Of a stretch of DNA of 62,316 bases, positions 6,830 to 44,987 are shown one piece after another. Position 1 is the stretch's first letter. Each line of letters opens with the position of its first letter. The notes below the pieces were generated by a model. The model saw only the letters and a program-made list of their open reading frames with translations. It was not told where the DNA came from and ran no database searches. A program made the translations under genes and the position numbers. This DNA is from Dehalococcoidia bacterium (lineage in GTDB: Bacteria > Chloroflexota > Dehalococcoidia > GIF9 > AB-539-J10), in contig PULQ01000025.1 of assembly GCA_003552465.1 (NCBI GenBank), positions 1 to 62,316 on the forward strand, read 5' to 3'.

Positions 6830-7240
6830 ATGGCAATCACATTTGGACCCCAGGAGTGGGCTGATGCACTGAAGCAGGCCATCGATGCCAGTCAGGCGTA
6901 CAAAGAGGCGGCTAAGAAGTGGGAGGGTGATATGTACATTATCATAGATCCCGATTCAGCCTACAGCCACAGGCATATCGTGTATCTTGATCTCTGGCAC
7001 GGAGAATGCCGCGAGGCACGTGTTGTTGAAGACGAGGGCGAGAAAGACCCGAAGTACCGGGTCTTCGGTCCGTTCACCAACATGAAGAAGATACTTGACA
7101 AAGAGGTTGATCCCGTCCGGTCTATGATGACCGGTAAGATAAGCGTCAAGGGAGATATGGTACAGATCATGCGGATGCCCAGAGCGGCGGTTGAACTGGT
7201 GAACTGCATGACCGCGTTTGAAACCGAGTTTCCGCAGTAG
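6830..7240 (+). CDS. SCP2 sterol/lipid-binding domain protein
   Basis: DPVRSMMTGKISVKGD motif, 136 aa, RBS GAGAGGAG. Confidence 0.85.
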   Translation: MAITFGPQEWADALKQAIDASQAYKEAAKKWEGDMYIIIDPDSAYSHRHIVYLDLWHGECREARVVEDEGEKDPKYRVFGPFTNMKKILDKEVDPVRSMMTGKISVKGDMVQIMRMPRAAVELVNCMTAFETEFPQ

Positions 7241-7340
7241 CCGACCTGAAGTCCCCGGCACCAGATCGACCGGCGATAGATGTCGGCACTTGACATAATA
7301 GTACTATCTGTATCGACGAATCAGGATAGGGGAGGTTCAT

Positions 7341-8510: not shown

Positions 8511-8652
8511 CGTCGCGCAGCGGAGCCGTTCAAGTAGTGTGGTGGTTTTAGACGGTTCATGGTGTGAAGCGGCTGGATGTTGGAAAAGACGAGTTCGAGA
8601 AGTAACAGCGATGTCTCGAAAGCTGTAGTATACAGGCAGAAGGAGCATTGTT

Positions 8653-10536
8653 ATGTTTGGCTACATGGGCAGGATTCTGAGAGTTGACCTTACAGACGGC
8701 AAAATCACGGAGGAGAGTCTGAACGAGGATGATTGCAGGATGTACCTGGGTGGAAGTGGACTGGCGACCAAGTATCTGTGGAACGAAGTGCCCGGAGGCG
8801 CGGATCCGCTTGGCCCCGAGAACGAGCTTATCTTCATGACCGGACCTCTCACGGGCACCGAGTCGCCCAGCGCAGGTAGGTACTGCGTTGTGACGAAGTC
8901 GCCTCTTACAGGCTTCTGGGCTGAGGCGAACTCAGGGGGCAGCTGGGGGGTGTATCTTAAGAACTCGGGGTTCGACGGGATTATCTTCAGGGGCATATCA
9001 CCAAAGCCGGTCTTTCTGGTGATCGACGACGGAAAGGCGGAACTGAGGGACGCGGGAGATCTCTGGGGTAAGGGTGTCAGTGAGACAGACAGGCTGATAA
9101 AGGAGGAACTGGGGGAGGACTTCAACGTTGCCTGCATCGGCATTGCGGGTGAGAACCTGGTTAAGTATGCCGCGATAATCAACGATGTACATCGAGCGGC
9201 CGGCAGGTGTGGGGTGGGCACGGTTATGGGGTCCAAGCGGTTGAAGGCTGTAGCCGCCGGAGGCACGCAGGAGATCAAGATTGCCAACCAGGAGGCCTTC
9301 AGCGAGACATCCAGGACAAACTACGACCTGATCAACGAGAGCATGCTGAAGATGACTTTGGAGACCTACGGCACGGCTATGAACACGGATCTTGTTAATG
9401 TGAGAGGCGGCTTTCCTACCAGGAACTGGCAGAGCGGCGTTTTCCCCGACATAGACAAGATAAGCGGGATCACGCTCGAGAGCACATTGCTGGTGGACAG
9501 GAAGCACTGTTATGCCTGTCCCATCAGTTGTTGCAGGGTCAGCGTGGTCAGGAGCGGTCCCTATGCGTGCAAAGGAGAGGGTCCGGAGTTCGAGACTATC
9601 GGAGCCTTCGGTGCTATGTGTGCGCTTGAGAATCTGGAGGCTGTCACACTTGCGCACAACCTCTGCGATGACTACGGGTTGGATGTCATCTCCGCCGGCA
9701 GCACAATAGCATTCGCTATAGAATGCTACGAAAAGGGGATTTTGACGAAGGATGATACCGGCGGGCTGGAGTTGAAGTTCGGTGACCCGTCCCCCGTCAT
9801 CGAGCTAGTACACCTTGTAGCGAAGAGAGAGGGCATTGGCGACCTGCTTGCGGAAGGAACCAGGAGAGTCGCGGCAAGCCTTGGCAAGGGCTCAGAGGAC
9901 TTCGCCATGCATGTAAAAGGACTGGAGTTGCCGGCGTATGATCCGAGAGCAGCCAAGATCTGCGGATTGGCATTCGCCACCGCCAACCGCGGCGGTGATC
10001 ATATGACGGCCTGGGTCGAAATGCCGGCGTTCATAGATGTGCCCATTCTGTGTGTTGAGGATAGCAGGATCGAAGACGCCATGGTTGAGAATCCCGCCGA
10101 GGCCAGGGTGCTGAAGGATCTTGAGGATGTTCTTACCGTATTCGACTGCGTCGGTACATGCAAGTTTATGGGCGTGGCGCTATCTGCTGAGGATTGGGTA
10201 GACATGATATCCAACTGCGTGGGCTGGGAGTTCAGCGTAAGCGATTTCAGAAGTGTCGGAGAGAGGGTTTACAATCTTGCCAGGGCCTTCAATGTGAGAG
10301 AAGGCCTGGTCAGGGCGGACGATACACTGCCCGGGAGGTTGCTGAACGAGCCATTGCCTGAAGGGGCGGCTGCCGGACACAAGGTGGAGAAGCTGGATGA
10401 GATGCTGGATGCCTACTACGAGTTTCGTGGTTGGGATAAGACGACAGGCAGGCCGACAGCAGAAAAGCTCAGAGAGCTCGGGCTGGACTATGTGATCGAT
10501 GTGATTGAGGGGTGTAACCATGGCCACTATTGCTGA
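8653..10536 (+). CDS. aor: Aldehyde:ferredoxin oxidoreductase (W-pterin AOR family)
   Basis: MFGYMGRILRVDL, KSPLTG, AAGRCGVG.VMGSK, CYACPISC, EGPEFET, DDYGLD. Confidence 0.93.
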   Translation: MFGYMGRILRVDLTDGKITEESLNEDDCRMYLGGSGLATKYLWNEVPGGADPLGPENELIFMTGPLTGTESPSAGRYCVVTKSPLTGFWAEANSGGSWGVYLKNSGFDGIIFRGISPKPVFLVIDDGKAELRDAGDLWGKGVSETDRLIKEELGEDFNVACIGIAGENLVKYAAIINDVHRAAGRCGVGTVMGSKRLKAVAAGGTQEIKIANQEAFSETSRTNYDLINESMLKMTLETYGTAMNTDLVNVRGGFPTRNWQSGVFPDIDKISGITLESTLLVDRKHCYACPISCCRVSVVRSGPYACKGEGPEFETIGAFGAMCALENLEAVTLAHNLCDDYGLDVISAGSTIAFAIECYEKGILTKDDTGGLELKFGDPSPVIELVHLVAKREGIGDLLAEGTRRVAASLGKGSEDFAMHVKGLELPAYDPRAAKICGLAFATANRGGDHMTAWVEMPAFIDVPILCVEDSRIEDAMVENPAEARVLKDLEDVLTVFDCVGTCKFMGVALSAEDWVDMISNCVGWEFSVSDFRSVGERVYNLARAFNVREGLVRADDTLPGRLLNEPLPEGAAAGHKVEKLDEMLDAYYEFRGWDKTTGRPTAEKLRELGLDYVIDVIEGCNHGHYC

Positions 10537-12208
10537 GAAACCATGGCTGAAGCAGTACAAGCTCGGACCCTATAAGCTTCCGCAGACGAAGGAGCCGTAT
10601 CCGGTTACGACGGTTCACAGTCTGCTTGACGCCACTGCGGCTGAGTATCCGGACAGGGTGGCCTGTTACTACCTGGGCAGAGAGATCCTGTACAGCGAGA
10701 TGAAGCAGTTCAGCGACAGCCTGGCTGCTGCGCTCGCAAACCTGGGAGTGACCAAGGGCGACAAGGTGGCTACCGTTCTGCCGAACTGCCCCCAGTTCAT
10801 GATAAGCGACTTCGGGATCATGAAGGCCGGGGCGGCGCATGTACCCTGCAGCGTGATGCACAGGGGGGCCGACCTGATCTATGAGATCGGAGAATCGGGG
10901 GCCGAGACGGTCATCTGTACCGATATGTCTCTGGACCTGGTGAACTCGGTAAGGGCGGAGACCCGCATCAAGAATGTCATCGTCAGCTCGTTGACGGACT
11001 ATTCGTCCGACGAGACTGATCCGAAGAAGCACCCGGATGCCCATGGATTCCGGGAGTTGATTGACAGCCACGGTCCCGAGCCTCCCGAGGTGGATATCGA
11101 TCCCATGACAGACCTGGCTGTTCTTCCCTTCACAGGAGGCGCTACGGGATTGCCCAAGGGAGTTATGCTGACCCACTATAACCGGGTGGTTGCTATAGTG
11201 CAGACGGCATGGTCTTATGAGCCTTTGAAGGTGGGCATCAGAGGGAAGGCTTCGGCCATGATACCCATCCCTCTGTTTCACGCCTACGGTCATCTTATGA
11301 TGCAGTTCGGGGTGTACTGGGGGCTGAAGGGCTATCTGCTGCCCGACCCGAGGGATACCGACACGCTGGTTCAGATGCTCATGAAGCATCGCCCCTTCTT
11401 CTGTGCCTGCGTGCCCACTCAGTATTCGCGACTGGTGGCGGCAGGACTGGGCAGACTGACCACGATGTTCATGTCGACGACGGCAGCGCTGGCGCCCGAG
11501 GTCGCGCAGAAGTTCAGGAAGGAGACGGGCGTGCCCATTACCGAGGCCTACGGCCTGACTGAGACCGGTGGTGCTACACATATCAACCTTTCGTCTTTCT
11601 CCAAGATCACCGGCTTTATGCCCTTCGAGAAGTTCGGGTCGATTGGGATTCCGCTGCCCGACACGGATGTGAGGATAGTCGATCTGGACACGGGGGAAGA
11701 CGTCGCTCCTGGCTGTGAGGGCGAACTATGGGTGCGAGGCCCACAGGTGATGATGGGATACTGGCCCGAGGCAGGCAAGGGCCTTGTCGACGGCTGGGTG
11801 CCCACGGGCGACGTGGTGAAGATGGAGGATGACGGGGATTTCTACATCACAGACCGTGTTAAGGACATGGCCAATATATCGGGACTGAAGGTCTACACCA
11901 GGCTGGTTGATGATGCCCTGTACGAGCACCCGGCGGTCGGCGATGCCGTTGCCATCGGGGTTCCCGACCCCGAGCGGGCAGGTAGTGAGAGGATCAAGGC
12001 CTTCATCCGGCTGAAAGAGGAATACGAAGGGCGGGTCACCGCTGAAGAGTTGATAGGGCATTGTCGGGAGAGGCTCCCGGCCTACGCGGTTCCCAAGTTC
12101 ATCGAGTTCAGAGAAGAGCTGCCTGTTACGGTCACGCTAAAGCTGTTCAAGAGGCAACTGAGAGAAGAGGAAGTGGCCAGGATGAAGGCCTCAGGTGAAT
12201 TGGGTTAG
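10520..12208 (+). CDS. Long-chain fatty acid-CoA ligase-like AMP-binding enzyme
   Basis: FTGGATGLPKG, YGLTE, GELWVRGPQVM.GYW, TGD, DRVKD. Overlaps the aor stop. Confidence 0.9.
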   Translation: MATIAEKPWLKQYKLGPYKLPQTKEPYPVTTVHSLLDATAAEYPDRVACYYLGREILYSEMKQFSDSLAAALANLGVTKGDKVATVLPNCPQFMISDFGIMKAGAAHVPCSVMHRGADLIYEIGESGAETVICTDMSLDLVNSVRAETRIKNVIVSSLTDYSSDETDPKKHPDAHGFRELIDSHGPEPPEVDIDPMTDLAVLPFTGGATGLPKGVMLTHYNRVVAIVQTAWSYEPLKVGIRGKASAMIPIPLFHAYGHLMMQFGVYWGLKGYLLPDPRDTDTLVQMLMKHRPFFCACVPTQYSRLVAAGLGRLTTMFMSTTAALAPEVAQKFRKETGVPITEAYGLTETGGATHINLSSFSKITGFMPFEKFGSIGIPLPDTDVRIVDLDTGEDVAPGCEGELWVRGPQVMMGYWPEAGKGLVDGWVPTGDVVKMEDDGDFYITDRVKDMANISGLKVYTRLVDDALYEHPAVGDAVAIGVPDPERAGSERIKAFIRLKEEYEGRVTAEELIGHCRERLPAYAVPKFIEFREELPVTVTLKLFKRQLREEEVARMKASGELG

Positions 12209-12292
12209 ACTTGCGGGTTCAACCTGGTGACGCGTTTTCACCGTGTGTTAAGAGGCGGCGCAGTGTGACTTCCGGGTGCCGCGGTACCAGAT

Positions 12293-13420
12293 ATGCCGAG
12301 CTACGAAGATCTAGAATCCAGGATCATTGACTCCGGAGAGTGCACCGTCTGCGGTGCCTGCGTTGTCGCCTGTCCGACGGCCCATGTGAAGCTCATCGAT
12401 GGCAGGCCAAGGCGGCCCAAACGCGCTATGGATTGTGTGGGTTGCAGCATCTGCTATGAAGCTTGTTACATGCTCAGGCACAGCCTGATCAAGGATATTG
12501 AGGGTGCCGTTATCGGTCGAGGAAAGAAAGAGAGCGTCGGGCTTTACATGCGCGCAGTGCTGGCGAGGACAACCGATGATGTGGTTGCCGACAGATGCCA
12601 GGATGGTGGGGTTGTGACTACGCTACTCCTGTATGCGCTGGAGAGCGGCATTATGGACGGCGTGCTGGTGGTCGGCAGAGACGGCTGGACTCCCACCGCC
12701 TATGTAGCAAGGACCAGGGAGGAGATAATGGAGGCGGCAGGTACCAAGTACGGCGTCGTGCCCGTGTTGAGTAAGCTGAGGGAGGCCGTTGTCGACCATG
12801 GATTGACCAAGATCTGGGTCGTGGGATCGCCATGTCATATACAGTCGATCAGATATCTCAAGCACAAGGGTTTGCCGCTGGCAACGTCGGTTCAGGTTAT
12901 GGTTGGCCTCTTCTGCAGGGAGAACTACGAGTATAACTGCATGGAGGAGCTGGTCAGGGCTCAGGGTGTCGAGATGAGCCAGGTCGATAGGCTGGAGGTA
13001 TACGATGAGTTCCGTGTATACGCAGATGGGAACAGGATGGACCTGCCTGTTACCGATATCAAGGATTGCGTGCCCCGGCATTGCCTTGTCTGCCGTGACT
13101 TCGCTGCCGAGCTTGCCGATATCGCCGCAGGTAGCGGGGGCTCCTACGGAGGCCGGTCAACCGTCATAGTCAGGAGTGTGAAGGGTGAGGAGGTCTTCGC
13201 CGGGATGGAGCAGTCGGGGCTGATCAGTACAGAGTCCGACGGATACGCGCCTGAGATCAGCGAGATTGCCGAAAGGAAGAGCGAAAAGGCGAAGCAAACC
13301 GGTGATATATTTCGGCTCGCCGAGAAGGGCCTTAATGAGAAGGAGATCTCCGATAGGCTCGGCATAACCGAGAGAAGGGTATCTCACCGACTGCGCGGTG
13401 CACGTCGGAACACCTCCTGA
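12293..13420 (+). CDS. FrhB/FdhB-like (F420 hydrogenase/dehydrogenase beta) protein with 2x[4Fe-4S] and C-terminal HTH-like segment
   Basis: CTVCGACVVAC, CVGCSICYEAC, QDGGVVT, GTKY, GSPCHI, GLFC, C..C.DF. Tail GLNEKEISDRLGITERRVSHRL. Confidence 0.85.
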   Translation: MPSYEDLESRIIDSGECTVCGACVVACPTAHVKLIDGRPRRPKRAMDCVGCSICYEACYMLRHSLIKDIEGAVIGRGKKESVGLYMRAVLARTTDDVVADRCQDGGVVTTLLLYALESGIMDGVLVVGRDGWTPTAYVARTREEIMEAAGTKYGVVPVLSKLREAVVDHGLTKIWVVGSPCHIQSIRYLKHKGLPLATSVQVMVGLFCRENYEYNCMEELVRAQGVEMSQVDRLEVYDEFRVYADGNRMDLPVTDIKDCVPRHCLVCRDFAAELADIAAGSGGSYGGRSTVIVRSVKGEEVFAGMEQSGLISTESDGYAPEISEIAERKSEKAKQTGDIFRLAEKGLNEKEISDRLGITERRVSHRLRGARRNTS

Positions 13421-13499
13421 ACACAACCGCGCGGTCTTGTGTAGAGCGCCTGCTTACAGATGGCAGATACCGGAAATAGACTAGATAGGAGGAAACACT

Positions 13500-13877
13500 G
13501 TGGAGAAGACTACCTATGAGATCGATGGATTTGCCAGGGGGGCGCCGTACTCACATGTTGTCGAGGCGGGTGGCTTCCTGTTCGTCTCCGGAGTTCTCCC
13601 CATCGATGTCGGGAAGAACCTGAAGATAACCGACGACGTAAAGGCGGCTACCGAACTGGTGCTCAGCAACGTGAAGCTGGCGCTTGAGTCGACTGGCAGC
13701 GATCTCGACAGGGTCGTCAAGGTTACCATCTTTCTGCGGGACATGGCCGATTTCAGCGCCATGAACGAGGTCTACAGGGCCTTCTTCCCCGTCAACCCGC
13801 CCGCTCGTTCTTGCATTGCCGTAAGGGAGGTTCCGGGTAACTACCCTGTGGAGATCGAAGCTATTGCCATCAAGTGA
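13500..13877 (+). CDS. RidA/YjgF family imine deaminase
   Basis: PYSH, FLFVSG.LP, VVKVTIFL.DM.DF..MNEVY, PARS, VEIEAIA. Confidence 0.92.
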   Translation: MEKTTYEIDGFARGAPYSHVVEAGGFLFVSGVLPIDVGKNLKITDDVKAATELVLSNVKLALESTGSDLDRVVKVTIFLRDMADFSAMNEVYRAFFPVNPPARSCIAVREVPGNYPVEIEAIAIK

Positions 13878-13956
13878 CGGATGAAGTGGCCGTCTAGCCC
13901 GGTATGCCGTTAGGAGGGCCACCCGCTGGGTGCCACCAGGTACATAGGAGGTTGCC

Positions 13957-16374
13957 ATGAGTGAAAGCACAGTGTTGCCGGAGATGACGATCGAGTCGTT
14001 CCCCAGGTTGTCGAAGCTCTATGACGACCTGCTATCGGCAAGGAAGGAGGTCTGCATCCAGAGGGCCCGCCATATCACGGACTTCATGAAGGGATCGGAT
14101 GTCTGGTTCATGCCTCCGGTGTTCAGGAGAGCCCGAGCAGTGGCTCACATTCTGAAGAACCTCGATGTGGGGATACATCCCGATGAGCTGTTGGTTGGCA
14201 GTATCACCAGCAAGCGGGTGGGAGCCGTCATCTATCCAGAGTTTGTCGGTGTCCTGATCTGGCCGGAACTAGCGAATCTGCGAGAACGAGCGGTGGATGC
14301 GTTCGACATCAGCGATGATGAGATCAAGGAGTTGGAGCAGGACATCTTTCCGTTCTGGATGGATAAGGTTCTGGCCTGGCATGCTCAGGAGTTCCTGTCG
14401 CCACCACAGCCCATGTCTCTCTTGTTCAAAGGGGGCTTCTTCGTGCTGACCGAAGCGGCAGGGATCTCACATACCGCTCCCGACTTTGAGAAACTGTTAC
14501 GTGTGGGGCTGGATGGCATCAAAGAGGAGGCAGGTGAAAAGGTCCGCGAGATGGATGCCGATCCCGTGGGTGATCCTGAGCGGTTCAGAGAACGCGCCTT
14601 CTACCGTGCTGTCCAGGTATCCTGTGATGCCGTCGTAGAGTTCGCCGGCAGGCACCACGCTGAGGCACTCAGACTCGCTGAACTGGAGACGGACAGCGAG
14701 AAGAAGGATGAACTGCTGGAGATCGCCCGTATCTGTGCCAAGGTGCCGGCCGGGCCGGCCACATGCTTCCGCGAGGCTCTGCAGAGCATATGGTTCCTCG
14801 AGATCGCTCTGCATCAGGAGAACTACGAGCAGGCTTTGTGCCCTGGTCGGGCAGACCAGTATCTCTATCCTTACTACCGGGATGATCTTGAGAAGGGACT
14901 CATCACCGCGGAGCAGGCCGTTGAGTTGCTCGGGTGCCTGTCTGTAAAGATGTCCGAGTTCGTCCCGCTGTTTGCCGAGAATCTCGCCACGCTGTTCAGT
15001 GGCTTCCCGGCCAATCCGTCGGTCACGATCGGCGGCGTGACTGCTGATGGTGCCGATGCTACGAATGAGCTTAGCTATCTGTTTCTGAAGACTAGAGAAC
15101 TGGTCAAGACCAGGCACCCCAATCTCCATGCTAGAGTACACGGGCAGTCGCCTCCTCAATACCTTGAGAGAATCTGCGAGGTAATCAAGGATGGCGGAGG
15201 AATGCCGGGCCTCGTCAACGACGATGTGGTTGTGCCTGCGCTTATGGCCAAGGGGATAACGGAGTCGGATGCTCGTGACTATGTGATCATCGGCTGCGTG
15301 GAGATATCGGTTCCCAGGAAGACCTTCGGCTCAACCGATGCCGCCTTGATGAGTCTGCCGGTCTGTCTCGAGATGGCTCTGAACAACGGCTGTAGTCCGG
15401 TCATGCAGGAGGAGGTCGGAGTGAAGACGGGCGATCCGAGGGAGTTCAGGGGAATGGATGACGTTCTCGGTGCTCTTCGAAATCAGATATCATACGTGGT
15501 GGAGCAGATGGTCATCGGCCTGAACGTCCTGGGCATTGCTCATAGGGAGCTATACCCCAGTCCCCTGCTGTCCTCTCTGATAGAGGGGTGTATTGACACC
15601 GGGAAGGACGTCACGGCCGGCGGTGCTGTGTACAACTTCACTGGCGTCCAGGGTGTGGGTGTGGCCGACGTTGCCGACTCACTGGCAGCCATTGACCGGT
15701 TGGTGTTCGCGGACAAGAAGGTAACGATGGATGAACTGCTGAAGGCTCTGGAGGACAACTTCGAGGGCCACGAGCGGCTTCATCAGTTGATAGTGAACAG
15801 GGTTCCCAAGTACGGCAATGACGATGAGCTTCCCGATAGGTATGCCAGGGAGGTTGCCGAACTCTTCTGTGGGGAAGTGGCGAAGCATCGTAATCCCAGA
15901 GGCGGAGCCTACTTGCCGGGGTTCCTGAGTATGACCAATCACAAAGGCTTCGGCAAGTTCGTCGGCGCATTGCCCAGCGGTAGAAGGGCCCTTGAGAGCC
16001 TCTCCAACGGCATATCGCCGTGCGACGGCGTGGATAGGAAAGGTCCGACCGCCTATCTCAAGTCGGTGGCAAAGGTCGACTACTCCCAGGCCACCAATGG
16101 AGTAGCGGTGAATCTGAAGTTCAACCCAACTTATCTCAGGGGTGCCGTCGGTACGGGGAACCTCGGTTCGCTGATCAGGGCCTACTTCGGGCTGGGCGGT
16201 ATGCACCTGCAGGTGAATGTGGTCGACAGGGAGACCCTTCTTGATGCCCAGAGGAACCCGGCGAAGCATGCCGGGCTTATGGTCAGGGTGGCCGGCTATT
16301 CGGCTTACTTCGCAGATCTGAGTCGAGAGGTACAGGACGAGATCATAGCCAGAACCGAGCATTGCTCTCAGTAG
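13957..16374 (+). CDS. Glycyl radical enzyme, PFL2/PflD-like, substrate unknown
   Basis: Gly loop RVAGYSAYF, Cys loop GCVEI, PDELLVGS, GRADQYLYP, PKYGND. 805 aa. Confidence 0.92.
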   Translation: MSESTVLPEMTIESFPRLSKLYDDLLSARKEVCIQRARHITDFMKGSDVWFMPPVFRRARAVAHILKNLDVGIHPDELLVGSITSKRVGAVIYPEFVGVLIWPELANLRERAVDAFDISDDEIKELEQDIFPFWMDKVLAWHAQEFLSPPQPMSLLFKGGFFVLTEAAGISHTAPDFEKLLRVGLDGIKEEAGEKVREMDADPVGDPERFRERAFYRAVQVSCDAVVEFAGRHHAEALRLAELETDSEKKDELLEIARICAKVPAGPATCFREALQSIWFLEIALHQENYEQALCPGRADQYLYPYYRDDLEKGLITAEQAVELLGCLSVKMSEFVPLFAENLATLFSGFPANPSVTIGGVTADGADATNELSYLFLKTRELVKTRHPNLHARVHGQSPPQYLERICEVIKDGGGMPGLVNDDVVVPALMAKGITESDARDYVIIGCVEISVPRKTFGSTDAALMSLPVCLEMALNNGCSPVMQEEVGVKTGDPREFRGMDDVLGALRNQISYVVEQMVIGLNVLGIAHRELYPSPLLSSLIEGCIDTGKDVTAGGAVYNFTGVQGVGVADVADSLAAIDRLVFADKKVTMDELLKALEDNFEGHERLHQLIVNRVPKYGNDDELPDRYAREVAELFCGEVAKHRNPRGGAYLPGFLSMTNHKGFGKFVGALPSGRRALESLSNGISPCDGVDRKGPTAYLKSVAKVDYSQATNGVAVNLKFNPTYLRGAVGTGNLGSLIRAYFGLGGMHLQVNVVDRETLLDAQRNPAKHAGLMVRVAGYSAYFADLSREVQDEIIARTEHCSQ

Positions 16375-16384
16375 GACTGTAACC

Positions 16385-17287
16385 ATGTCGGAGGGCGCCA
16401 CAGTTTTCGACCTGCAGCGCTTCTCTATACACGACGGTCCCGGCATCAGAACCGTTGTCTTCTTCAAGGGCTGTCCGCTTCAGTGCCTGTGGTGTCAGAA
16501 TTCGGAGGGCCTGGACCCTGAGCCTGAGATCAGCTTCTCGAAGGAGAGGTGCCTGGGTTGTCGGGAATGCCAACCTTCATGCCCATTGCAGGCGATCGTC
16601 TTCAATGGAGATGGGCGCATCAACCGCCAGCTTTGTGATCGCTGCGGCAGGGGCACCGAAGCCTGCCATTCGGGTGCCCTTGAACTCGTCGGCAGGCGCT
16701 ACTCTCCGCAGGAGTTGCTGGAAGAGGCCATGGATGATCTGCCCTTCTTCGTAGCATCGGGTGGCGGCATCACCCTCTCGGGAGGCGAGCCTACCTGCCA
16801 GGCTGAGTTCCTGTCCGAGTTTCTTCCACTGTGTAAGGAGCAGGGGCTCAATGTCGCTATGGAGACATGTGGCTACGTGGCCTACCAGAAACTGGAGCCG
16901 CTGCTTCCCTTCCTGGACCTGGTTCTGTACGATGTCAAGGCCGTTGACCCGGCGCTGCACCGGCGTCTCACCGGGAAGGATAACGCTGTGATACTGAAGA
17001 ACCTGGTGCGGCTTCTTGAAAAGCAAAGGTGCAGGATCAGGGTCAGGGTGCCTCTGGTTCCGGGCATGACATCGACGGACAGGAACCTTAGGGACATCAT
17101 TGGCTTTCTTAAGAAACATCGCGTCGACGAAGTGTCACTTGTCCCCTACCACAGGATGGGGGAGAGTAAGCTGGAAAAGATCGACAGCCCGCTGAAACCG
17201 CTGAATCTGGCCGGGGCCGATGATCGAGATATGGAAGCTGCAGCAGGCCTGTTTCGTGTTAGTGGCATTGAAGTCCTGGACCCGTGA
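16385..17287 (+). CDS. Glycyl-radical activating enzyme (radical SAM) with ferredoxin insert
   Basis: HDGPGIRTVVFFKGCPLQCLWCQN, CLGCRECQPSC, GGITLSGGEP, directly after the GRE. Confidence 0.95.
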   Translation: MSEGATVFDLQRFSIHDGPGIRTVVFFKGCPLQCLWCQNSEGLDPEPEISFSKERCLGCRECQPSCPLQAIVFNGDGRINRQLCDRCGRGTEACHSGALELVGRRYSPQELLEEAMDDLPFFVASGGGITLSGGEPTCQAEFLSEFLPLCKEQGLNVAMETCGYVAYQKLEPLLPFLDLVLYDVKAVDPALHRRLTGKDNAVILKNLVRLLEKQRCRIRVRVPLVPGMTSTDRNLRDIIGFLKKHRVDEVSLVPYHRMGESKLEKIDSPLKPLNLAGADDRDMEAAAGLFRVSGIEVLDP

Positions 17288-17321: not shown

Positions 17322-17350
17322 TTGACCTATCGGTACCGATACACTAAAAT
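17322..17350 (+). promoter_or_regulatory. Sigma70 promoter with perfect 14-bp palindrome in the spacer
   Basis: TTGACC-17-TAAAAT. Spacer contains TATCGGTACCGATA (17328-17341). Confidence 0.6.
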
Positions 17351-17362
17351 GGCATCTCAGTT

Positions 17363-18244
17363 GTGAACCCGGATGCTATTCAGCAAGACATAGAGCCTGC
17401 TCTTCGTGATCTTCCCGATCGACTCTGTTCTGGTGCCGCGCACCGCAATGATGGAAGGGTGGACCTGGATTGGGACGATGACCATGTGCTTCCCCCGAAG
17501 GTCTACCCGGACATAGCTCACCTTTTCCGAAGGATGACCGATGTCACAGTCGGGGCTGTGGGTGTGGTGGAGCAGGAACTTGTGCTTGATATCGGGTGTG
17601 GCAGGGCGGTTGATGCCATAGAACTGGCCAGGAAGGGAGGGCTGTGCTCAGGACTTGAGCCGTCGGGGAGGATGATATCGCACGCCCGGCTGCATACCTC
17701 CCGGAACGGTGCTTCGGTCAACCTCGCCCGTGGAGTAAGTGCACACCTGCCGTTCAAGACAGGTTCGTTCGACAAGATACTCTGCAAGGGAGCTCTGGAT
17801 CACTTCTGCCATTTGGACGAGGCGATCGCCGAAATGGCCCGGGTGCTCAAGCCAGGGGGGCGGGCGGTGATCGCCACTGCCAACTTCGAGAGCCTCGGGT
17901 TCAGGACCGGAAGACGGTTGTTCGCACTGATGCGTTTTCTGCGCAGAGAGAAGGCGGATGACGGTCATTTCTGGCAGATACCCGATGACCATACCATCAA
18001 GCTGGACTACGGCACCCTCAGGCGTCTGGTAAGCCCTCATTTCAGGGTAGAGCGTGCCGAGGGTATATCGTTGCTGGTCGGACTGCCTGGCTGGAGTTCG
18101 CTGCTTGATAGATTGCCGCAGAGGCTTTCTGCTCTTTCGCTGACGGCCCTGGACGGGTTGGCCAGGCATTTGCCTTCGCTCAGCAATGTCATCGTCATCA
18201 GGTGCGTGCCCAGGGCGAATCCTACCTCTTCGTCAACAGAATAG
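17363..18244 (+). CDS. Class I SAM-dependent methyltransferase
   Basis: VLDIGCG, LPFKTGSFD, RVLKPGG. Confidence 0.85.
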   Translation: MNPDAIQQDIEPALRDLPDRLCSGAAHRNDGRVDLDWDDDHVLPPKVYPDIAHLFRRMTDVTVGAVGVVEQELVLDIGCGRAVDAIELARKGGLCSGLEPSGRMISHARLHTSRNGASVNLARGVSAHLPFKTGSFDKILCKGALDHFCHLDEAIAEMARVLKPGGRAVIATANFESLGFRTGRRLFALMRFLRREKADDGHFWQIPDDHTIKLDYGTLRRLVSPHFRVERAEGISLLVGLPGWSSLLDRLPQRLSALSLTALDGLARHLPSLSNVIVIRCVPRANPTSSSTE

Positions 18245-18863
18245 AGGAGATGCCGTAGTCCCCGACTATCTCGTGCCGATCCAGTATGTCATCTTTGTGC
18301 TCATCCATCAGTTCGTCTACCGCCTCGGTCACCTCCGGCCAGTCGTCGAACCTGTAATCGTGAAAGCCAATGATACCTCCCGATACCAGGTGTGGCCAGA
18401 TGAGGCGGAAGTCGCTCTTCACACAGTCCTTCTGGTGACAACCATCGACGAAGGCGAAGACGAATCTAGTTTCCTCGTCCAGGACCACCCTTCTGGAGTC
18501 CTCTATGATCGTGACGATGTTGGGAAGACGCCTCGTCGCCTCTCTGTATACCTCCCACATGGAGCGCCCTTTCAGAAATGCACGGTAGACCTCGGCTGCC
18601 GGCACTGTGCTCTTGCTCACTGTGGTGTCCATGTCGGGGTCGAAGGTGTCGATGACATACACTCTCTTATCGTGCCTGGCTGCCAGTCTTGCCAGCTTCA
18701 CCGTACCACCGCCCATGTAGGCTCCGACCTCTATGAGGTCGCCTTCCATCTGCATCAGCCCCTGTCTCGTTATGAAGGCGATGAGGTTATCGTAGCCGAC
18801 GAACTCGGGTGGCGGGCGCTTCAGCCCCGGTATTCTGTGCCAGATATCGGCGATGCGGACCAA
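18222..18863 (-). CDS. Class I methyltransferase (Methyltransf_24-like), positional equivalent of MMP OrfD
   Basis: IEVGAYMGG, VIDTF, FAFVDGCH, LVSGGIIGFHDY. Confidence 0.75.
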   Translation of the reverse strand: MVRIADIWHRIPGLKRPPPEFVGYDNLIAFITRQGLMQMEGDLIEVGAYMGGGTVKLARLAARHDKRVYVIDTFDPDMDTTVSKSTVPAAEVYRAFLKGRSMWEVYREATRRLPNIVTIIEDSRRVVLDEETRFVFAFVDGCHQKDCVKSDFRLIWPHLVSGGIIGFHDYRFDDWPEVTEAVDELMDEHKDDILDRHEIVGDYGISSILLTKR

Positions 18864-18872
18864 GTCAACCTC

Positions 18873-19916
18873 TCACGGAAACCTGGTGAAGACCCTGCTT
18901 CGGGTAGCTTGAGGGTTCGCGATCTCAAGCTGGCTGCTGAGCGCGATGACCATCGCCGCTGAGACCCAAGTCGGTTTCTCCTCCGGGGGCCAGATCTCCT
19001 CCTCGGGCATCTTCATGCCCGTCCAGAAGCGCCCATCGTCATCTCTGAGTTCCAGGGCCCAGTCCAGGAGGGTCCTTGCCCTGTGGCTCTCGCCGATACG
19101 GTTCAGTGCCAGGACGAGTTCGCAGGTCTCGGCCACAGTTATCCCCCATGGTTCCTCCACCACACACTTGCACCCCCGGCCGTCGACAACGAAATCCGAC
19201 CACTTCTCGTAGATGCGCTCTCTGGCCTCCCCTCCCCTCACTATGCCGGTGAGAACGGGATAGTACCAGGACATCGCATAGTCATATTGACTGTCGACCG
19301 AGTTATGGAACAGCTCCGGTTGTTCGCTGACCGCATGTGCCAGTCTGCGGCTGGCAGCATGCCAGCGGGGCTTGTCGGTCTGCAGGAGTCTGGCTACCTT
19401 GATCCCACATCGCAGACTCTGGTAGATGGAGCTGGACCCTGCTATTAGCGCCAGAGGATAGACTGCCCCGTGCGGGTCACGAGCCCAGTAGATATGGCCG
19501 GGCGGCTGCTGCAGTTGCAGGGCGAAGTCGAGCCCTCTCTCCACCGTCGGCCACATCTCGGCAACGAAGCCCCTGTTCCGGGTTATCATGTAGTGATACC
19601 ACAGCCCGACTGCGGGATAGGAGCTGTAGTTGGTGTCTTTGGTCAGATCGCAGGGTTCATCTCCCATATAGCTGGAGTACCAGCTCCCGTCGTCGTTCTG
19701 AGCGCCGCGCAACCAGCGGTATGCCCTCTCGGCTTCTTCGTGTCTTCCCGACGCATCCAGAGCTATCGCACACTCGACGTGATCCCACGGGTCGGCAATG
19801 CCCGTGTCATACCACGGTATAATGCCCGACGGTAGCTGGGTACGGCCTATGTGGTCGGCCTGCTGCTCTATCAGGCAATCGATCTCCGACCGTGTTAACT
19901 CTTGTCTCAGATCCAC
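18873..19916 (-). CDS. Alpha/alpha-toroid glycoside hydrolase-like protein (MmpH-like)
   Basis: IPW...DPWDHVECA.AL, Q..DGSW, DTN, MWP.V, SIYQSLRC, MSWYYP, AETCEL, FWTG, match recalled mycobacterial MmpH-type motifs. Confidence 0.75.
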   Translation of the reverse strand: MDLRQELTRSEIDCLIEQQADHIGRTQLPSGIIPWYDTGIADPWDHVECAIALDASGRHEEAERAYRWLRGAQNDDGSWYSSYMGDEPCDLTKDTNYSSYPAVGLWYHYMITRNRGFVAEMWPTVERGLDFALQLQQPPGHIYWARDPHGAVYPLALIAGSSSIYQSLRCGIKVARLLQTDKPRWHAASRRLAHAVSEQPELFHNSVDSQYDYAMSWYYPVLTGIVRGGEARERIYEKWSDFVVDGRGCKCVVEEPWGITVAETCELVLALNRIGESHRARTLLDWALELRDDDGRFWTGMKMPEEEIWPPEEKPTWVSAAMVIALSSQLEIANPQATRSRVFTRFP

Positions 19917-19920
19917 GGAA

Positions 19921-20640
19921 CTACCTCTCGTTCTCGTTCTTGGTTGCGTAGAGGACCGTGCTCTTCGCGAAGAAAAGGGTGAAGAAGGAATCGAGCCATC
20001 GAATCGGCCTGCTGTTGGCCCTCATATCCCAGACCAGGAACCTGTAATAAAGCGAAGGAACGACCGCCTTTTCGTTGTTCACTCCGAACAGGCAGCGCAG
20101 TATCCAGTAGAAGGAGTGCAGAGCGTGCTTGCGGCGCCTGGCATAGACTTGCAGGCCGTGTGCACTGAGGGGCGGGATCAGCTGGCCCGACCTGTATATC
20201 CGCACGTGGCCGCCTGCACGGGCATGGTAGGCAGACGATATTCGCCAGCAAATGGCTTCAGGGAGGTAGCTTGGGACGCTTACGGCAACTGCGCCTCTGT
20301 CCTTCAGCCCCCTGGCCATCTCCTTGATGCCCTGCAGGTCATCCGGTACATGTTCCAGCACTTCCGAGCATACTATCTTATCGAAAACCCCTTCTTTGAA
20401 GGGAAGGCTCACGGTGCTTGCCCGAAGGAGACCCCACTGTGCCCGGGACTCTCCCTGCCTCTCCATAGCACCAAGGACACCCCTGGCCCGCATGAGCTCT
20501 TCTCCATCGATATCGAGCGCATACACAGTGCAGAAGGCCCGCCGGCAGGCCTCCCAGCTATGCCTGCCGGTACCACACCCGATATCGAGTACTCTTTCGC
20601 CATCCCCGATCTCCAAAACGCTGTAATCGACGGTGAGCAT
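19921..20640 (-). CDS. Class I methyltransferase (MeT1-like)
   Basis: MLTVD, DIGCGTGRH, SEVLEH, PE.ICW..S..YH...GGH.RIY, HALHS.YW, LVWD. Confidence 0.8.
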   Translation of the reverse strand: MLTVDYSVLEIGDGERVLDIGCGTGRHSWEACRRAFCTVYALDIDGEELMRARGVLGAMERQGESRAQWGLLRASTVSLPFKEGVFDKIVCSEVLEHVPDDLQGIKEMARGLKDRGAVAVSVPSYLPEAICWRISSAYHARAGGHVRIYRSGQLIPPLSAHGLQVYARRRKHALHSFYWILRCLFGVNNEKAVVPSLYYRFLVWDMRANSRPIRWLDSFFTLFFAKSTVLYATKNENER

Positions 20641-21867
20641 TCACATCACCTCCCGGTATACCTCGACCGTCTTCCGGGCCGCGCGTTCCCAGGTAAACTC
20701 GCTCTCGATCCTCTTACGTCCCGCTTCGCCCATCTTCTCTCGCAATGACGCATTGTCAAGGAGTGTTCTGATAGCCGCCGCAAGTGCCTCCGGCTGCGCC
20801 GGCGGTACCAGGATCCCGGCCTCGCCATCGCGTCCCACCACCTCGGGAAGCGCACCTCCAGTTGTGGAGACTACCGGAAGCCCGCAGGCCATAGCCTCTG
20901 CGGCGGGAAGCCCGAAACCCTCGTATAGCGATGGCACTACACACATCTCGGCTGCCGCGTACTCCTTCACCAGTCGGTCGGCACTCACCCTGCCCGTGAA
21001 GCTGACCATATCTTCGATGCCGTATTGCTTTATCAGCTTAAGATACTGGCCGTCGGGAAGGGGACTGCCGACAACGGTCAGCCTGATGTCTGTCCCGTCT
21101 TTGAGAATGCGGAGCGCCTGGAGGAGGTAGGGCACTCCCTTCAACGACTGCTCTCCGCTGTTGACCAGCACCAGGCTGTTGGGACGCTTGGGAACGCCAT
21201 TCGCCTTACGGAAGCGTTCGGTGTCGATCCCGTTGTGCACAACCCTCATGTGTTCCCTGCGAACTCCGTGGGCCTGTTCAATCGAACCGACCGAACTGTT
21301 GGAGACGGTGATGACCCGCTCCAGGCGTCGCGCCACCCGTCCCTGCATGCCGCAGAAAGCGTCCCAGCGGCGGATGAACAGTTTTCGCCACGGATATCTC
21401 GCCTGAGCGACGGCCATGTCCCGGTCGATGGGAATCGGATGATGAATGGTGGCCACAACCGGTATGCCCAGGCGCTTCATCAACAGCAGTCCGTAGCCCA
21501 GGCACTGGTTGTCATGGATGATATCGTACCTTCGCTCTCCCAGTAGCTCCTTGATCCTCCGGTAGGCCCGTAGACTGAATGTGAGCGGCTCGGGGAAGGT
21601 CCCGGTGCCGACCGCCAGCACCTCGTACAGGTTGACGGGATCGTAGAGACGGGACATGATCTTCCGTACCGACTTGTCAGGCTCATACAGGTTGAGGCTG
21701 TCAAGTCTGTGCAGCTGTATTCCCTCGGCAACTTCGGGATAGGGAGGCCCGGCCATCACATCGACCTCGTGGCCGAGTTCCAGCAGAGCTCGTGACAGAT
21801 AGTAGATATAGATGCCCTGCCCCCCACAATAAGGATTGCCGCGATAGGATAGAAGGCAGATTCTCAT
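20641..21867 (-). CDS. GT4 glycosyltransferase (ManT-like)
   Basis: MRI.LLSYR...CGGQG.Y, FPEP.TFSLRA, HDNQCLG, ATIHHPI, PSLYEGFGLPA.EAMACG. Confidence 0.85.
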   Translation of the reverse strand: MRICLLSYRGNPYCGGQGIYIYYLSRALLELGHEVDVMAGPPYPEVAEGIQLHRLDSLNLYEPDKSVRKIMSRLYDPVNLYEVLAVGTGTFPEPLTFSLRAYRRIKELLGERRYDIIHDNQCLGYGLLLMKRLGIPVVATIHHPIPIDRDMAVAQARYPWRKLFIRRWDAFCGMQGRVARRLERVITVSNSSVGSIEQAHGVRREHMRVVHNGIDTERFRKANGVPKRPNSLVLVNSGEQSLKGVPYLLQALRILKDGTDIRLTVVGSPLPDGQYLKLIKQYGIEDMVSFTGRVSADRLVKEYAAAEMCVVPSLYEGFGLPAAEAMACGLPVVSTTGGALPEVVGRDGEAGILVPPAQPEALAAAIRTLLDNASLREKMGEAGRKRIESEFTWERAARKTVEVYREVM

Positions 21868-22027: not shown

Positions 22028-23227
22028 GTGAACCAGGACAGGAGAAGGCGAGTCTTCAGGGGGATAACGAGAAACGTCCTTCTGCTCGGACTGGTCAGCC
22101 TCTTCACCGACCTCAGCAGCCAGATGGTCTTCCCACTCATTCCCCTGTACCTTGTCGCCGTCCTGGGCACGGGGGCGTCCGCAGTAGGGATTGTTGAGGG
22201 TGCCGCTGAGACGACCGCTTCTCTGATAAAGGTCTTCTCCGGTTACTGGTCCGACAGACTGAAGCGGAGGAAACCGTTTGTGTTGATCGGCTATTCTCTC
22301 TCGGCGATCACCAAGCCGCTGTTCGCCCTGGCCGGAACCTGGCCCCTGGTTCTCGTGATCAGGATGGTGGAGAGGGTGGGTAAGGGCGTGCGAAGCGCCC
22401 CGAGGGATGCCATTGTGGCCGAGTCGGTTGACATGGGCGTCAGGGGCAAGGCCTATGGATTTCACAGGGCTATGGACGGAATCGGCTCTGTCGCGGGTGC
22501 CCTCCTGGCATTCGCTCTTCTGGCGGCTACCGACTCGGACTACGGGCGGATCTTCCTGCTGGCCGGTATACCTGGGGTAGCGGCTGTGTTGTTCATACTG
22601 CTTATCAAGGAGCCGGAGGCCGTCAAAGAGCCGCAGAAGGCGAAGCTGTCTATGCGTGTCAGCTTCACCGCCTTGCCCGCCACCCTCAGGCTGCTAATAG
22701 TGGCCGCTTCGGTGTTCTATCTCGGCCACTTCGGTTATGCCTTCCTGCTTCTCAGGGCTATGGACATCGGACTGACCGACCAGACGGCGATACTCCTCTA
22801 CGTGCTGTTCTACGTAGTCTACGTCTTCGCCGCGATGCCGGCGGGATCGTTATCGGACAGGATAGGCAGAAAGCCGGTGCTGGTCGCCAGTTACCTGGCA
22901 TTCGGCCTCGTCTCTCTGGGCCTCGTGTTCACAGGCGACATCTACAGTCTCCTGCCTCTTTTTGCACTCTACGGCGTATCGTTCGCCATGTTCGATAGTG
23001 TGCAGAGAGCATACGTGGTTGACTTCGCCCCCGAACACCTCAGGGGCACTGCTCTGGGCACATTTCACGCATGCGTGGGCCTGGTTGCCCTGCCCGGTGG
23101 TTATCTGGCCGGTATGCTGTGGGACAGGGTGGGGCCGGAAGCCACATTTCTCTACGGTCTTGTCCTGGCAGTTGTCTCCGCTCTCCTGCTTCTGGGAGTG
23201 AAGTCCGGGCGCGAACCCGACGGCTAG
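22028..23227 (+). CDS. MFS transporter
   Basis: 12 TM segments, SDRLKRRKP, RVGKG.RSAPRDA, SDRIGRK. Confidence 0.9.
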   Translation: MNQDRRRRVFRGITRNVLLLGLVSLFTDLSSQMVFPLIPLYLVAVLGTGASAVGIVEGAAETTASLIKVFSGYWSDRLKRRKPFVLIGYSLSAITKPLFALAGTWPLVLVIRMVERVGKGVRSAPRDAIVAESVDMGVRGKAYGFHRAMDGIGSVAGALLAFALLAATDSDYGRIFLLAGIPGVAAVLFILLIKEPEAVKEPQKAKLSMRVSFTALPATLRLLIVAASVFYLGHFGYAFLLLRAMDIGLTDQTAILLYVLFYVVYVFAAMPAGSLSDRIGRKPVLVASYLAFGLVSLGLVFTGDIYSLLPLFALYGVSFAMFDSVQRAYVVDFAPEHLRGTALGTFHACVGLVALPGGYLAGMLWDRVGPEATFLYGLVLAVVSALLLLGVKSGREPDG

Positions 23228-24570: not shown

Positions 24571-24690
24571 TCCCTGGCAACGACATATTTTCCCGGAGAG
24601 TTGCCCCTCGAGTATCGTCTGCGCTGGAGCGTTTCACTTCCGTGTTCGGGATGGGAACGGGTGGGGCCACTCCGCCAAAGTCACCAGGAA
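24571..24690 (-). rRNA. rrf: 5S rRNA (free-standing)
   Basis: Minus strand CCTGGTGAC...CCACCCGTTCCCATCCCGAACACGGAAGTGAAACGCTCCAGCGCAGACGATACT...GGGAAAATATGTCGTTGCCAGG, with paired ends. Confidence 0.97.
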
Positions 24691-26233: not shown

Positions 26234-26452
26234 TTGCTGGAGTCTCTTTATGTAGCACAGATATTGGTAGCAATAGCACTGGTTGCCTCGGTGCTCTTTC
26301 AGTTGCGTGGTGGAGGCATCGGAGGTATCTTCGGGCAGGCCGACTCGGTGTACAGGACGCGCCGGGGGGGTGAGAGTACGCTGTTCAAGCTCACCATAGT
26401 CCTGATCGGCTTGCTCGTTGTGTTCGCGATTGTGGCGGCCACCGTTGCCTGA
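26234..26452 (+). CDS. secG: Preprotein translocase subunit SecG
   Basis: Two TM segments with LFQ.RGGG.GG.FG and RTRRG.E..L loop. RBS GGAGG. Confidence 0.85.
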   Translation: MLESLYVAQILVAIALVASVLFQLRGGGIGGIFGQADSVYRTRRGGESTLFKLTIVLIGLLVVFAIVAATVA

Positions 26453-26462
26453 TATCCATTAT

Positions 26463-27299
26463 ATGAGTTCCATCATCACCCTGACCACGGACTTCGGCTA
26501 CGACGACGCCTACGTTGCCTCCGTGAAGGGAGCCATCCTGAGCGTCAACCCCGAGGCCAGCATTGTCGATGTCACCCACTCCATCCAGCCCCAGAACATA
26601 TTGCAGGCGGCTTTCGTGCTCAATGCCGCCTATCGTTGCTTCCCGAAGCAGACGGTACACGTCGTTATTGTCGACCCCGGCGTCGGTAGCGACCGCGAAA
26701 GCATAGTACTGAAGACGCCCTCCGCGCTCTTCGTCGCGCCGGACAACGGCGTTCTGAGCTACGTGGTCGATGACCTGGTTCCTGTCGAGACGCCCCCGGC
26801 CCGGCCGGCGGGTAAGCTGACCCGTGTCATCATGAAGAAAGGGATTGAGGTCGTGGCTATCAGCGACCCGCGTTTCTGGCGACGGCCTGTGAGCCCGACG
26901 TTCCACGGGAGAGATGTCTTCGCACCGGTGGCCGGGGGACTGTCGCTCGACATCGCGATGTACGAGTTCGGTACCAAGGTCGACTCCCTTCACGTCCTGC
27001 CGCTTCCCAGGCCATCTCGCGATCCCGATGGCATCCTGGTGGGACAGGTTCTGCATATCGACCGCTTTGGCAACCTGATCGCCAACATAAAGGGAAGTGA
27101 CCTGCCGGGAAGAGACGCCACCATCGAGGTGGCGGGCTGCTGCATAGAAGGCGTCAGCAAGTTCTACGCCCAGAACACGGGAGTGATGGCCCTGCTCGGC
27201 AGCACCGGTCATCTTGAGATATCCTACAGGGACGGCAGCGCCTGCGACTTCTTGGGCGCGGTAGTGGGTGACGAGATCAGGGTGATTCCAGCCGCGTAG
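26463..27299 (+). CDS. DUF62 SAM hydroxide adenosyltransferase family
   Basis: TLTTDFG, VDVTH, VVIVDPGVGS.R, APDNG, SPTFHGRD.FAP, IDRFGN. Confidence 0.9.
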   Translation: MSSIITLTTDFGYDDAYVASVKGAILSVNPEASIVDVTHSIQPQNILQAAFVLNAAYRCFPKQTVHVVIVDPGVGSDRESIVLKTPSALFVAPDNGVLSYVVDDLVPVETPPARPAGKLTRVIMKKGIEVVAISDPRFWRRPVSPTFHGRDVFAPVAGGLSLDIAMYEFGTKVDSLHVLPLPRPSRDPDGILVGQVLHIDRFGNLIANIKGSDLPGRDATIEVAGCCIEGVSKFYAQNTGVMALLGSTGHLEISYRDGSACDFLGAVVGDEIRVIPAA

Positions 27300-44913: not shown

Positions 44914-44987
44914 TGCCCCCAAGGGGATTCGAACCCCTGATCTTCAGCTTGAAAGGCTGATGTCCTAGGCCTCTAGACGATGGGGGC
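44914..44987 (-). tRNA. tRNA-Glu(TTC)
   Basis: GCCCCCA...TCAGC-CTTTCAA-GCTGA...GGTTCGAATCC...TGGGGGC-A. Upstream TTGCAC-17-TAAAAT. Confidence 0.97.

Follow-up and report, generated by a model that had tools for sequence, protein, structure and literature searches.

The biosynthesis of methylmannose polysaccharide (MMP), together with the mechanism termed 'self-recycling, partially conservative replication', has so far been studied as a peculiarity of nontuberculous mycobacteria and a few actinomycetes, where it was explained through fatty acid synthase I (FAS-I) and a lipid-rich envelope. In M. hassiacum, the cluster contains MHAS_04402 (ManT), 04403 (pMeT3), 04404 (MmpH) and 04405 (MeT1) in this order, and the M. 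smegmatis cluster is MSMEG_6481-6484 (Ripoll-Rozada 2019; PMC9883506). The polymer is cytoplasmic and binds long-chain acyl-CoA, and homologues of MmpH were described by Maranha et al. 2023 in actinobacterial genera only (PMC9883506). Here, an operon of this type is reported in a 62,316 bp stretch of DNA (contig PULQ01000025.1, positions 1 to 62,316, hereafter called the window) from a Dehalococcoidia bacterium of the phylum Chloroflexota, whose genome is a metagenome-assembled genome (MAG) of 1.8 Mb with a completeness of 87%. The finding of a known pathway in an altered form is well supported: the host group is unexpected, the system is widespread in it, and MeT1 has been swapped for a distinct Methyltransf_24 lineage.

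Operon structure and identity of its enzymes

The operon comprises four genes, which are listed here together with a convergent methyltransferase gene (MT11b) and two promoter-like sites.

20641-21867, minus strand: glycosyltransferase of family GT4 (gene 1, ManT orthologue), 408 aa; Pfam Glycos_transf_1/Glyco_transf_4
19921-20640, minus strand: Methyltransf_11 protein (gene 2, pMeT3 slot), 239 aa; Pfam Methyltransf_11/23/25
18873-19916, minus strand: (alpha/alpha)6-barrel protein (gene 3, MmpH orthologue), 347 aa; sub-threshold squalene-cyclase-like Pfam matches only
18222-18863, minus strand: Methyltransf_24 protein (gene 4, MeT1 slot), 213 aa; Pfam Methyltransf_24, PF13578
17363-18244, plus strand: MT11b, a second Methyltransf_11 gene, 293 aa; convergent with gene 4
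21943-21915, minus strand: sigma-70-like promoter site 5' of the start of gene 1, TTGACA-17-TAGCAT, 10/12 matches; consensus match only
17322-17350: promoter-like site of MT11b

The intergenic gaps are 0, 4 and 9 nt in order from gene 1 to gene 4, the slot order is that of MHAS_04402-04405, and the GC content of the operon is the same as that of the remainder of the window. No riboswitch or other RNA element was found near the operon in an Rfam scan. None of the five proteins (the four operon products and MT11b) has a transmembrane segment, there being no 19-residue stretch hydrophobic enough, and none has a signal-like N-terminus. According to Pfam and the gene list, the operon contains no Wzx, Wzy or ABC exporter, flippase, priming transferase, or lipid-carrier or polyprenol-linked step.

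Residues to be compared were taken from published mutagenesis and structural data (PMC9883506) and checked in alignments of 45 ManT and 81 MmpH homologues. A phmmer search of gene 1 against all PDB sequences gave M. hassiacum ManT as the best match (7qsg, E 3.5e-102, residues 1-406), the second-best GT4 having an E value of 1e-28. The identity between gene 1 and M. hassiacum ManT was 44.9% over 410 aa, and gene 1 was by far the best match of the latter in the host genome, which makes the two reciprocal best hits. Residues G15, H142, K240, E313, G314, F315, L317 and E321 are retained, the catalytic GT-B (GPGTF) residues among them, and L291V and D293A substitutions are present; in NCBIfam, gene 1 gives weak matches to exopolysaccharide (EPS) GT4s. 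Gene 1 is an orthologue of ManT and is predicted to be a retaining alpha-(1->4)-mannosyltransferase.

The sole match of gene 3 among all PDB sequences was MmpH (7qsj, E 2.2e-82), the identity with the M. hassiacum protein being 44.2% over 308 aa. Gene 3 is present in a single copy in the host genome and is the reciprocal best hit of M. hassiacum MmpH. Residues D47, W49, D50, N101, M215, Y219, E262, E265 and W315 are retained, including D47 and D50 (acid) and E262 (base), which were validated by mutagenesis (PMC9883506); two subsite substitutions, F102Y and T163A, were found. MmpH was reported to be highly specific for MMP. Gene 3 is an MmpH orthologue with a predicted endo-alpha-(1->4)-mannosidase activity. 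This identification corrects the NCBI annotation, in which Chloroflexota homologues of MmpH appear under the names 'prenyltransferase' or 'hypothetical'. In JGI, one metagenome protein has already been labelled 'MMP endo-(1,4)-3-O-methyl-alpha-D-mannosidase'.

For gene 2, the Nonomuraea gerenzanensis gene located between ManT and MmpH was used as the actinobacterial proxy for pMeT3, in place of M. hassiacum WP_005631136.1. The PDB contains no structure of pMeT3, and a protein search with the Nonomuraea gene gave sequences from Streptosporangiales only. Gene 2 is 39% identical to it over 236 aa (E 6e-59) and is its best match in the host genome (reciprocal best hit). Across 37 Dehalococcoidia loci, the identity of gene 2 is 38-47%, and its counterpart remains beside ManT in genomes with a split cluster too (see below). 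Gene 2 is the class I S-adenosylmethionine (SAM) methyltransferase of the pMeT3 slot and is predicted to act as a mannose O-methyltransferase, probably 3-O.

Gene 4 matched Methyltransf_24 (PF13578) with 58 bits (cut-off 26.3), and its match to TylF was just under the threshold (22.3 vs 23). The best PDB match of the single sequence was MeT1 (6g7d) with an E value of only 0.1, and a profile of 24 orthologues from Dehalococcoidia matched 6g7d alone with an E value of 9.7e-7; in contrast, the equivalent gene of the Dormiibacterota locus L074 matched 6g7d with an E value of 3.4e-67. The FIDGGH and HD motifs of MeT1 align with FxDGxH and HD of gene 4. The AlphaFold 2 model of gene 4 had a mean confidence (pLDDT) of 89.9, and its top Foldseek matches were SpnH, MycF, MeT1 (rank 5), NovP and CalS11, which are Mg-dependent sugar O-methyltransferases. 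A counterpart of gene 4 is located directly 3' of MmpH in 65 of the 68 best-scoring loci (L001-L068, see below), and canonical MeT1 was found in none of these 68 loci. Judging by the profile match and the modelled fold, gene 4 appears to be a sugar O-methyltransferase that is remotely related to MeT1 and is not its orthologue.

The 3' end of MT11b overlaps gene 4 by 23 nt. MT11b has the same adjacent, convergent arrangement in 24 related loci, even though conservation there does not extend to its upstream neighbours, which encode a glycyl radical enzyme (GRE) system in the window. Among 201 genomes sampled from the order, both MT11b and MmpH are present in 70, MmpH only in 17, MT11b only in 18 and neither in 96 (odds ratio 22, without phylogenetic correction). 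An obligatory fifth component was rejected as a role for MT11b, which also occurs in near-complete genomes without MmpH. It is regarded, with low confidence, as a candidate accessory methyltransferase.

The original prediction, made from the sequence alone, had described a tightly coupled operon of a GT4, a methyltransferase, a toroid hydrolase and a Methyltransf_24-like enzyme at 18222-21867 on the minus strand, and such an operon is present. Its central claim of an MMP-type cluster outside Actinobacteria agrees with the reciprocal best hits of ManT and MmpH, the retained catalytic residues and the shared gene order; the similarity revealed by the reciprocal searches lies far beyond the family level. 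The names ManT and MmpH can be kept. The name MeT1, given to gene 2, cannot, as this gene occupies the pMeT3 slot, and the fourth gene, assigned to an 'OrfD position', lies in the MeT1 slot; the published slot names are ManT, pMeT3, MmpH (formerly OrfA) and MeT1, and none of them is 'OrfD' (PMC9883506). It had also noted that nothing similar was described in Chloroflexota, and the literature search likewise found no paper joining methylmannose with Chloroflexi, Chloroflexota or Dehalococcoidia.

Distribution and phylogeny of the cluster types

A scan for MmpH-like proteins with one genome per prokaryotic species gave 563 loci. The best 68 of these (L001-L068) all belong to Dehalococcoidia or Chloroflexota MAGs; next come Gammaproteobacteria (Halieaceae, OM182, Alkalilimnicola), Desulfobacterales, one Dormiibacterota and one Halobacteriales MAG. 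The four genes are collinear with those of the window in about 35 Dehalococcoidia species, and collinearity of the core was also found in Nonomuraea, Dormiibacterota and Gammaproteobacteria. About 29 further Dehalococcoidia species have only MmpH and the Methyltransf_24 gene side by side (split type), and the pair of ManT and the pMeT3-slot gene was located elsewhere in the same genome in all six genomes tested. An interpretation of the MmpH-Methyltransf_24 pairs as leftovers was accordingly rejected. The genes are co-inherited, and since the split pairs persist within genomes, the system behaves as two modules, namely an elongation/methylation pair and a cleavage/modification pair. Some split-type genomes carry two ManT copies at distant sites (L068, L093 and L095 on the G590 chromosome), which are 54% and 50% identical to ManT of the window. 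A homologue of MmpH is present in 87 of the 201 genomes sampled from the window's order (40 of the 78 high-quality ones) and in 16 of 401 genomes sampled evenly across the phylum; its presence is patchy even inside the window's own genus.

Three cluster types were found in Chloroflexota:

Type A, other Chloroflexota classes: ManT-pMeT3-MmpH with a true MeT1 on the opposite strand; ManT 51-55% identical to that of M. hassiacum
Type B, a sister family within the window's order: a tandem pair of ManT genes together with MmpH and a true MeT1; a gene for the pMeT3 slot is lacking
Type C, the type of the window: Methyltransf_24 gene in place of MeT1

A maximum-likelihood tree of MmpH placed all type C sequences, from 64 Dehalococcoidia species, in one clade (support 100/100, branch length 0.58). 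All MmpH proteins partnered with a true MeT1, namely those of Actinomycetota, Dormiibacterota, Gammaproteobacteria and Chloroflexota types A and B, are on the other side of this branch, and the type A sequences group with those of Actinomycetota and Dormiibacterota. The methyltransferase was therefore exchanged on one branch only, the same one along which MmpH diverged. The ManT tree agrees with the MmpH tree, and the ManT proteins of the split type form one clade. A recent transfer from Actinobacteria was considered and rejected: the type C clade is deep and diversified and mirrors the ManT tree, and the GC content of the operon matches the window.

Several individual loci deserve mention. 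In the type A loci L103-L106 (genomes of 2.5-3.8 Mb), MmpH is 46-54% identical to the M. hassiacum protein and ManT lies above the 50% identity used in the literature as a criterion; the type B loci L100-L102 (genomes G416, G105 and G364) have a canonical MeT1 on the opposite strand. The locus labelled as a Halobacteriales MAG (L071) contains ManT, a pMeT3-slot gene and MmpH, collinear on a 13.8 kb contig and grouping with Halieaceae, and no MeT1 was seen in it; this points either to a binning error or to horizontal acquisition by an archaeon. In two Desulfobacterales MAGs (L072, L073), MmpH homologues with 43-47% identity were found, and no ManT, pMeT3-slot gene or MeT1 was present within 6 kb. 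A search of actinobacterial plasmid records for the MMP cluster gave a single match, L082 (NZ_LT559118.1), an 11.85 Mb replicon of Nonomuraea gerenzanensis filed as 'plasmid I' with 10 annotated features, which is evidently the chromosome. It holds ManT, the pMeT3-slot gene and MmpH, and a MeT1-like gene on the opposite strand 1.3 kb downstream.

Neighbouring genes

Next to MT11b, a plus-strand operon at 6830-17287 contains genes for SCP2, Fe-alcohol dehydrogenase, aldehyde:ferredoxin oxidoreductase, acyl-CoA ligase, an FrhB-like Fe-S flavoprotein, RidA, a GRE and its activase. Its features mentioned below, and a transporter gene on the other side of the MMP-type operon, are as follows:

6830-7240, plus strand: SCP2
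10505-12208, plus strand: acyl-CoA ligase, long-chain type
13957-16374, plus strand: GRE, 805 aa; PFL2/glycerol-dehydratase subfamily
16385-17287, plus strand: GRE activase
22028-23227: major facilitator superfamily (MFS) transporter gene, divergent

The GRE scored 778 bits against TIGR01774 and is below every equivalog cut-off; the families closest to it are the sulfopropanediol, hydroxyproline and choline enzymes. These matches suggest that it acts on small molecules as a dehydratase or lyase and is not of a type activating hydrocarbons or lipids, and the plus-strand operon is a candidate for an uncharacterised GRE dehydratase/lyase pathway. Among the 68 Dehalococcoidia loci, the GRE gene is adjacent in L001 and L002 only and the activase gene in L001-L003. 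The neighbours of the split-type loci are rsmG, pdxS, tmk, and genes for radical SAM and pyridoxal phosphate enzymes. As the GRE adjoins the cluster in the closest relatives only and the neighbours in other lineages are housekeeping genes, a linkage of the cluster to lipid or acyl-CoA metabolism is not conserved.

The window also contains a solitary 5S rRNA gene (24572-24688, minus strand; Rfam score 89.7 bits) and a tRNA gene (44914-44987, minus strand); 16S and 23S genes are absent from its 62 kb. A gene for a SAM hydroxide adenosyltransferase (SAM_HAT_N/C, a family related to fluorinases and chlorinases) is located at 26418-27299 on the plus strand and is followed by two genes with the metallo-beta-lactamase fold.

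Proposed pathway, alternatives and comparison with known systems

The operon most likely encodes a soluble cytoplasmic pathway for the synthesis and self-recycling of a short polymethylated alpha-(1->4)-mannan, a counterpart of the MMP of mycobacteria. We infer the donor, linkage, methylation positions, chain length and physiological role as follows. ManT would extend alpha-1,4-mannooligosaccharide primers using a nucleotide-mannose donor, probably GDP-mannose, and the methyltransferase of the pMeT3 slot would O-methylate the added mannoses, probably at O3. Mature chains would be cut internally by MmpH into oligomers priming new chains. The Methyltransf_24 enzyme would modify these products, most plausibly blocking the new reducing end as MeT1 does, possibly acting on another hydroxyl, and MT11b, encoded convergently, might contribute one more methyl group. 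The polymer may bind acyl chains or other hydrophobic ligands rather than modulate FAS-I; its role as a lipid chaperone would be a transfer by analogy from mycobacteria. As for GDP-mannose supply, TIGR01479 (GMP_PMI) was not found in the host genome. Among the NTP_transferase genes, there is a single candidate for an Rv3264c-type mannose-1-phosphate guanylyltransferase, a contig-end fragment in the host genome, which is consistent with such a supply but not decisive.

Several observations weigh against this interpretation. The identities of ManT and MmpH are below the operational criterion of the authors of the MMP study (>50% identity and >70% coverage to the M. hassiacum proteins; PMC9883506), with coverage being >85%. 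Residue D293, the proposed guanine contact of GDP-Man, is Ala in gene 1; this position is variable across the family, even among clusters with canonical MeT1, and D293A is therefore not diagnostic. In the literature, pMeT3 is itself merely putative. Canonical MeT1 was found nowhere in the host genome, and no match was better than gene 4, so a 1-O-methyl cap is not assured. The full-length congener of the candidate guanylyltransferase scored 292 bits against an NCBIfam cut-off of 440 and is not specific to cluster carriers. In the literature searched, no methylmannose polymer from any Chloroflexota was found. Finally, the host genome contains no FAS-I, its one ketosynthase domain being located in a 416-aa FabF-like frame, and the mycobacterial rationale, relief of FAS-I product inhibition, therefore cannot apply directly.

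The same enzyme families could instead make a chemically different methylated glycan, with another donor, sugar or linkage, or with heavier methylation and no 1-O-methyl cap. The D293A and L291V substitutions at the proposed guanine contact of ManT, F102Y and T163A at the MmpH subsites, the replacement of MeT1 by a distinct lineage, the long separate MmpH branch and the often adjacent third methyltransferase are in line with such a product. It is nevertheless rather unlikely, given that gene 1 is 45% identical over its full length to the only known alpha-1,4-mannosyltransferase and gene 3 is 44% identical to the MMP-specific hydrolase, that the residues validated by mutagenesis are all kept, and that D293 varies even alongside canonical MeT1. 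Decoration of a surface structure (S-layer glycoprotein, glycolipid or exopolysaccharide) has in its favour that loci for surface glycans often contain GT4s and sugar methyltransferases, the weak matches to EPS GT4s and the divergent MFS gene. This gene is conserved in L001, L003 and L005 only, however, and the five proteins lack transmembrane segments and signal-like N-termini. The operon encodes neither a Wzx/Wzy/ABC exporter nor a priming transferase nor any polyprenol-linked step, and the polymer on which the nearest characterised relatives act is cytoplasmic (PMC9883506); a surface role thus seems very improbable.

The original prediction had also linked the glycan to the adjacent SCP2/acyl-CoA/GRE genes, which would make it a dedicated lipid chaperone for that pathway. 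The two units are adjacent in the window, L001 and L002, genes for SCP2 and for an acyl-CoA ligase of the long-chain type are present, and mycobacterial MMP binds long-chain acyl-CoA (PMC9883506). This functional link found no support: adjacency is limited to two or three closest relatives among the 68, the split-type loci have rsmG, pdxS, tmk and the like as neighbours, and transcription of the two units is convergent. The GRE subfamily, together with aldehyde:ferredoxin oxidoreductase and Fe-alcohol dehydrogenase, points to a small-molecule dehydratase route, and a dedicated chaperone is highly improbable. Many Dehalococcoidia are necromass scavengers, and MmpH is a hydrolase, so the genes might serve to scavenge and degrade exogenous methylated mannans without any synthesis. 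The co-inheritance of a biosynthetic GT4 and two or three SAM methyltransferases with MmpH, the predicted cytoplasmic location of all proteins and the lack of a dedicated uptake system conserved at the loci leave this explanation barely credible.

It is possible, though doubtful, that the type C product is a polymethylated mannan differing chemically from mycobacterial MMP, having another reducing-end cap or an extra methylation position introduced by the Methyltransf_24 enzyme and possibly MT11b, with MmpH having co-evolved and the role lying apart from FAS-I. If so, the polymer could solubilise or buffer hydrophobic substrates or acyl chains, or serve cold or stress adaptation, in small-genome anaerobes, and polymethylated polysaccharides would be ancient cytoplasmic carriers of hydrophobic ligands spanning several phyla and chemical subtypes. 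As orthologous machinery is found in about half of an order of uncultured anaerobic Dehalococcoidia that lack FAS-I and a mycolate envelope, and in several other phyla, the core function of the polymer must reach beyond what the mycobacterial explanation covers. The replacement of the capping enzyme on a single branch is a natural experiment on the coupling of MmpH specificity and end-capping. Being small and soluble, the proteins are concrete candidates for enzymology.

Comparison with known systems shows where the operon of the window stands. Gene 4 shares the fold of the TylF/MycF/SpnH/NovP/CalS11 family (Foldseek E 3e-10 to 1e-8, TM-score 0.57-0.66), belongs to Pfam Methyltransf_24 and has a weak TylF match. 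However, the members of that family methylate deoxysugars on macrolides and aminocoumarins in secondary-metabolite clusters, whereas gene 4 is tied to MmpH without a polyketide context and is 17-20% identical to them. The canonical clusters (L103-L106, L074 and L069-L080) have the ManT-pMeT3-MmpH core in the same order and with the same predicted chemistry. They differ in having their own true MeT1 on the opposite strand, 47-72% identical among themselves, and in that MmpH and ManT from these clusters fall together with the actinobacterial proteins, the window type forming a separate clade. The two-ManT variant (L100-L102) belongs to the same Dehalococcoidia order and also contains MmpH and ManT homologues; it has tandem ManT genes, a canonical MeT1 and no pMeT3 slot, unlike the window with its one ManT, pMeT3-slot gene and divergent Methyltransf_24 gene.

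The mycobacterial MMP cluster differs from that of the window in its fourth gene, which in the window is not an orthologue of MeT1. Gene 4 is co-directional and tightly packed, whereas the fourth gene is on the opposite strand in Nonomuraea, Dormiibacterota, Gammaproteobacteria and other Chloroflexota. In addition, Dehalococcoidia clusters often carry an extra convergent methyltransferase, and the host is an anaerobe whose 1.8 Mb genome encodes fatty-acid synthesis of type II alone and which has no envelope of mycolic acids. The two clusters are alike in the order and co-direction of the first three genes, in the class I methyltransferase between ManT and MmpH, in the Methyltransf_24-fold enzyme behind MmpH and in the solubility of all their proteins.

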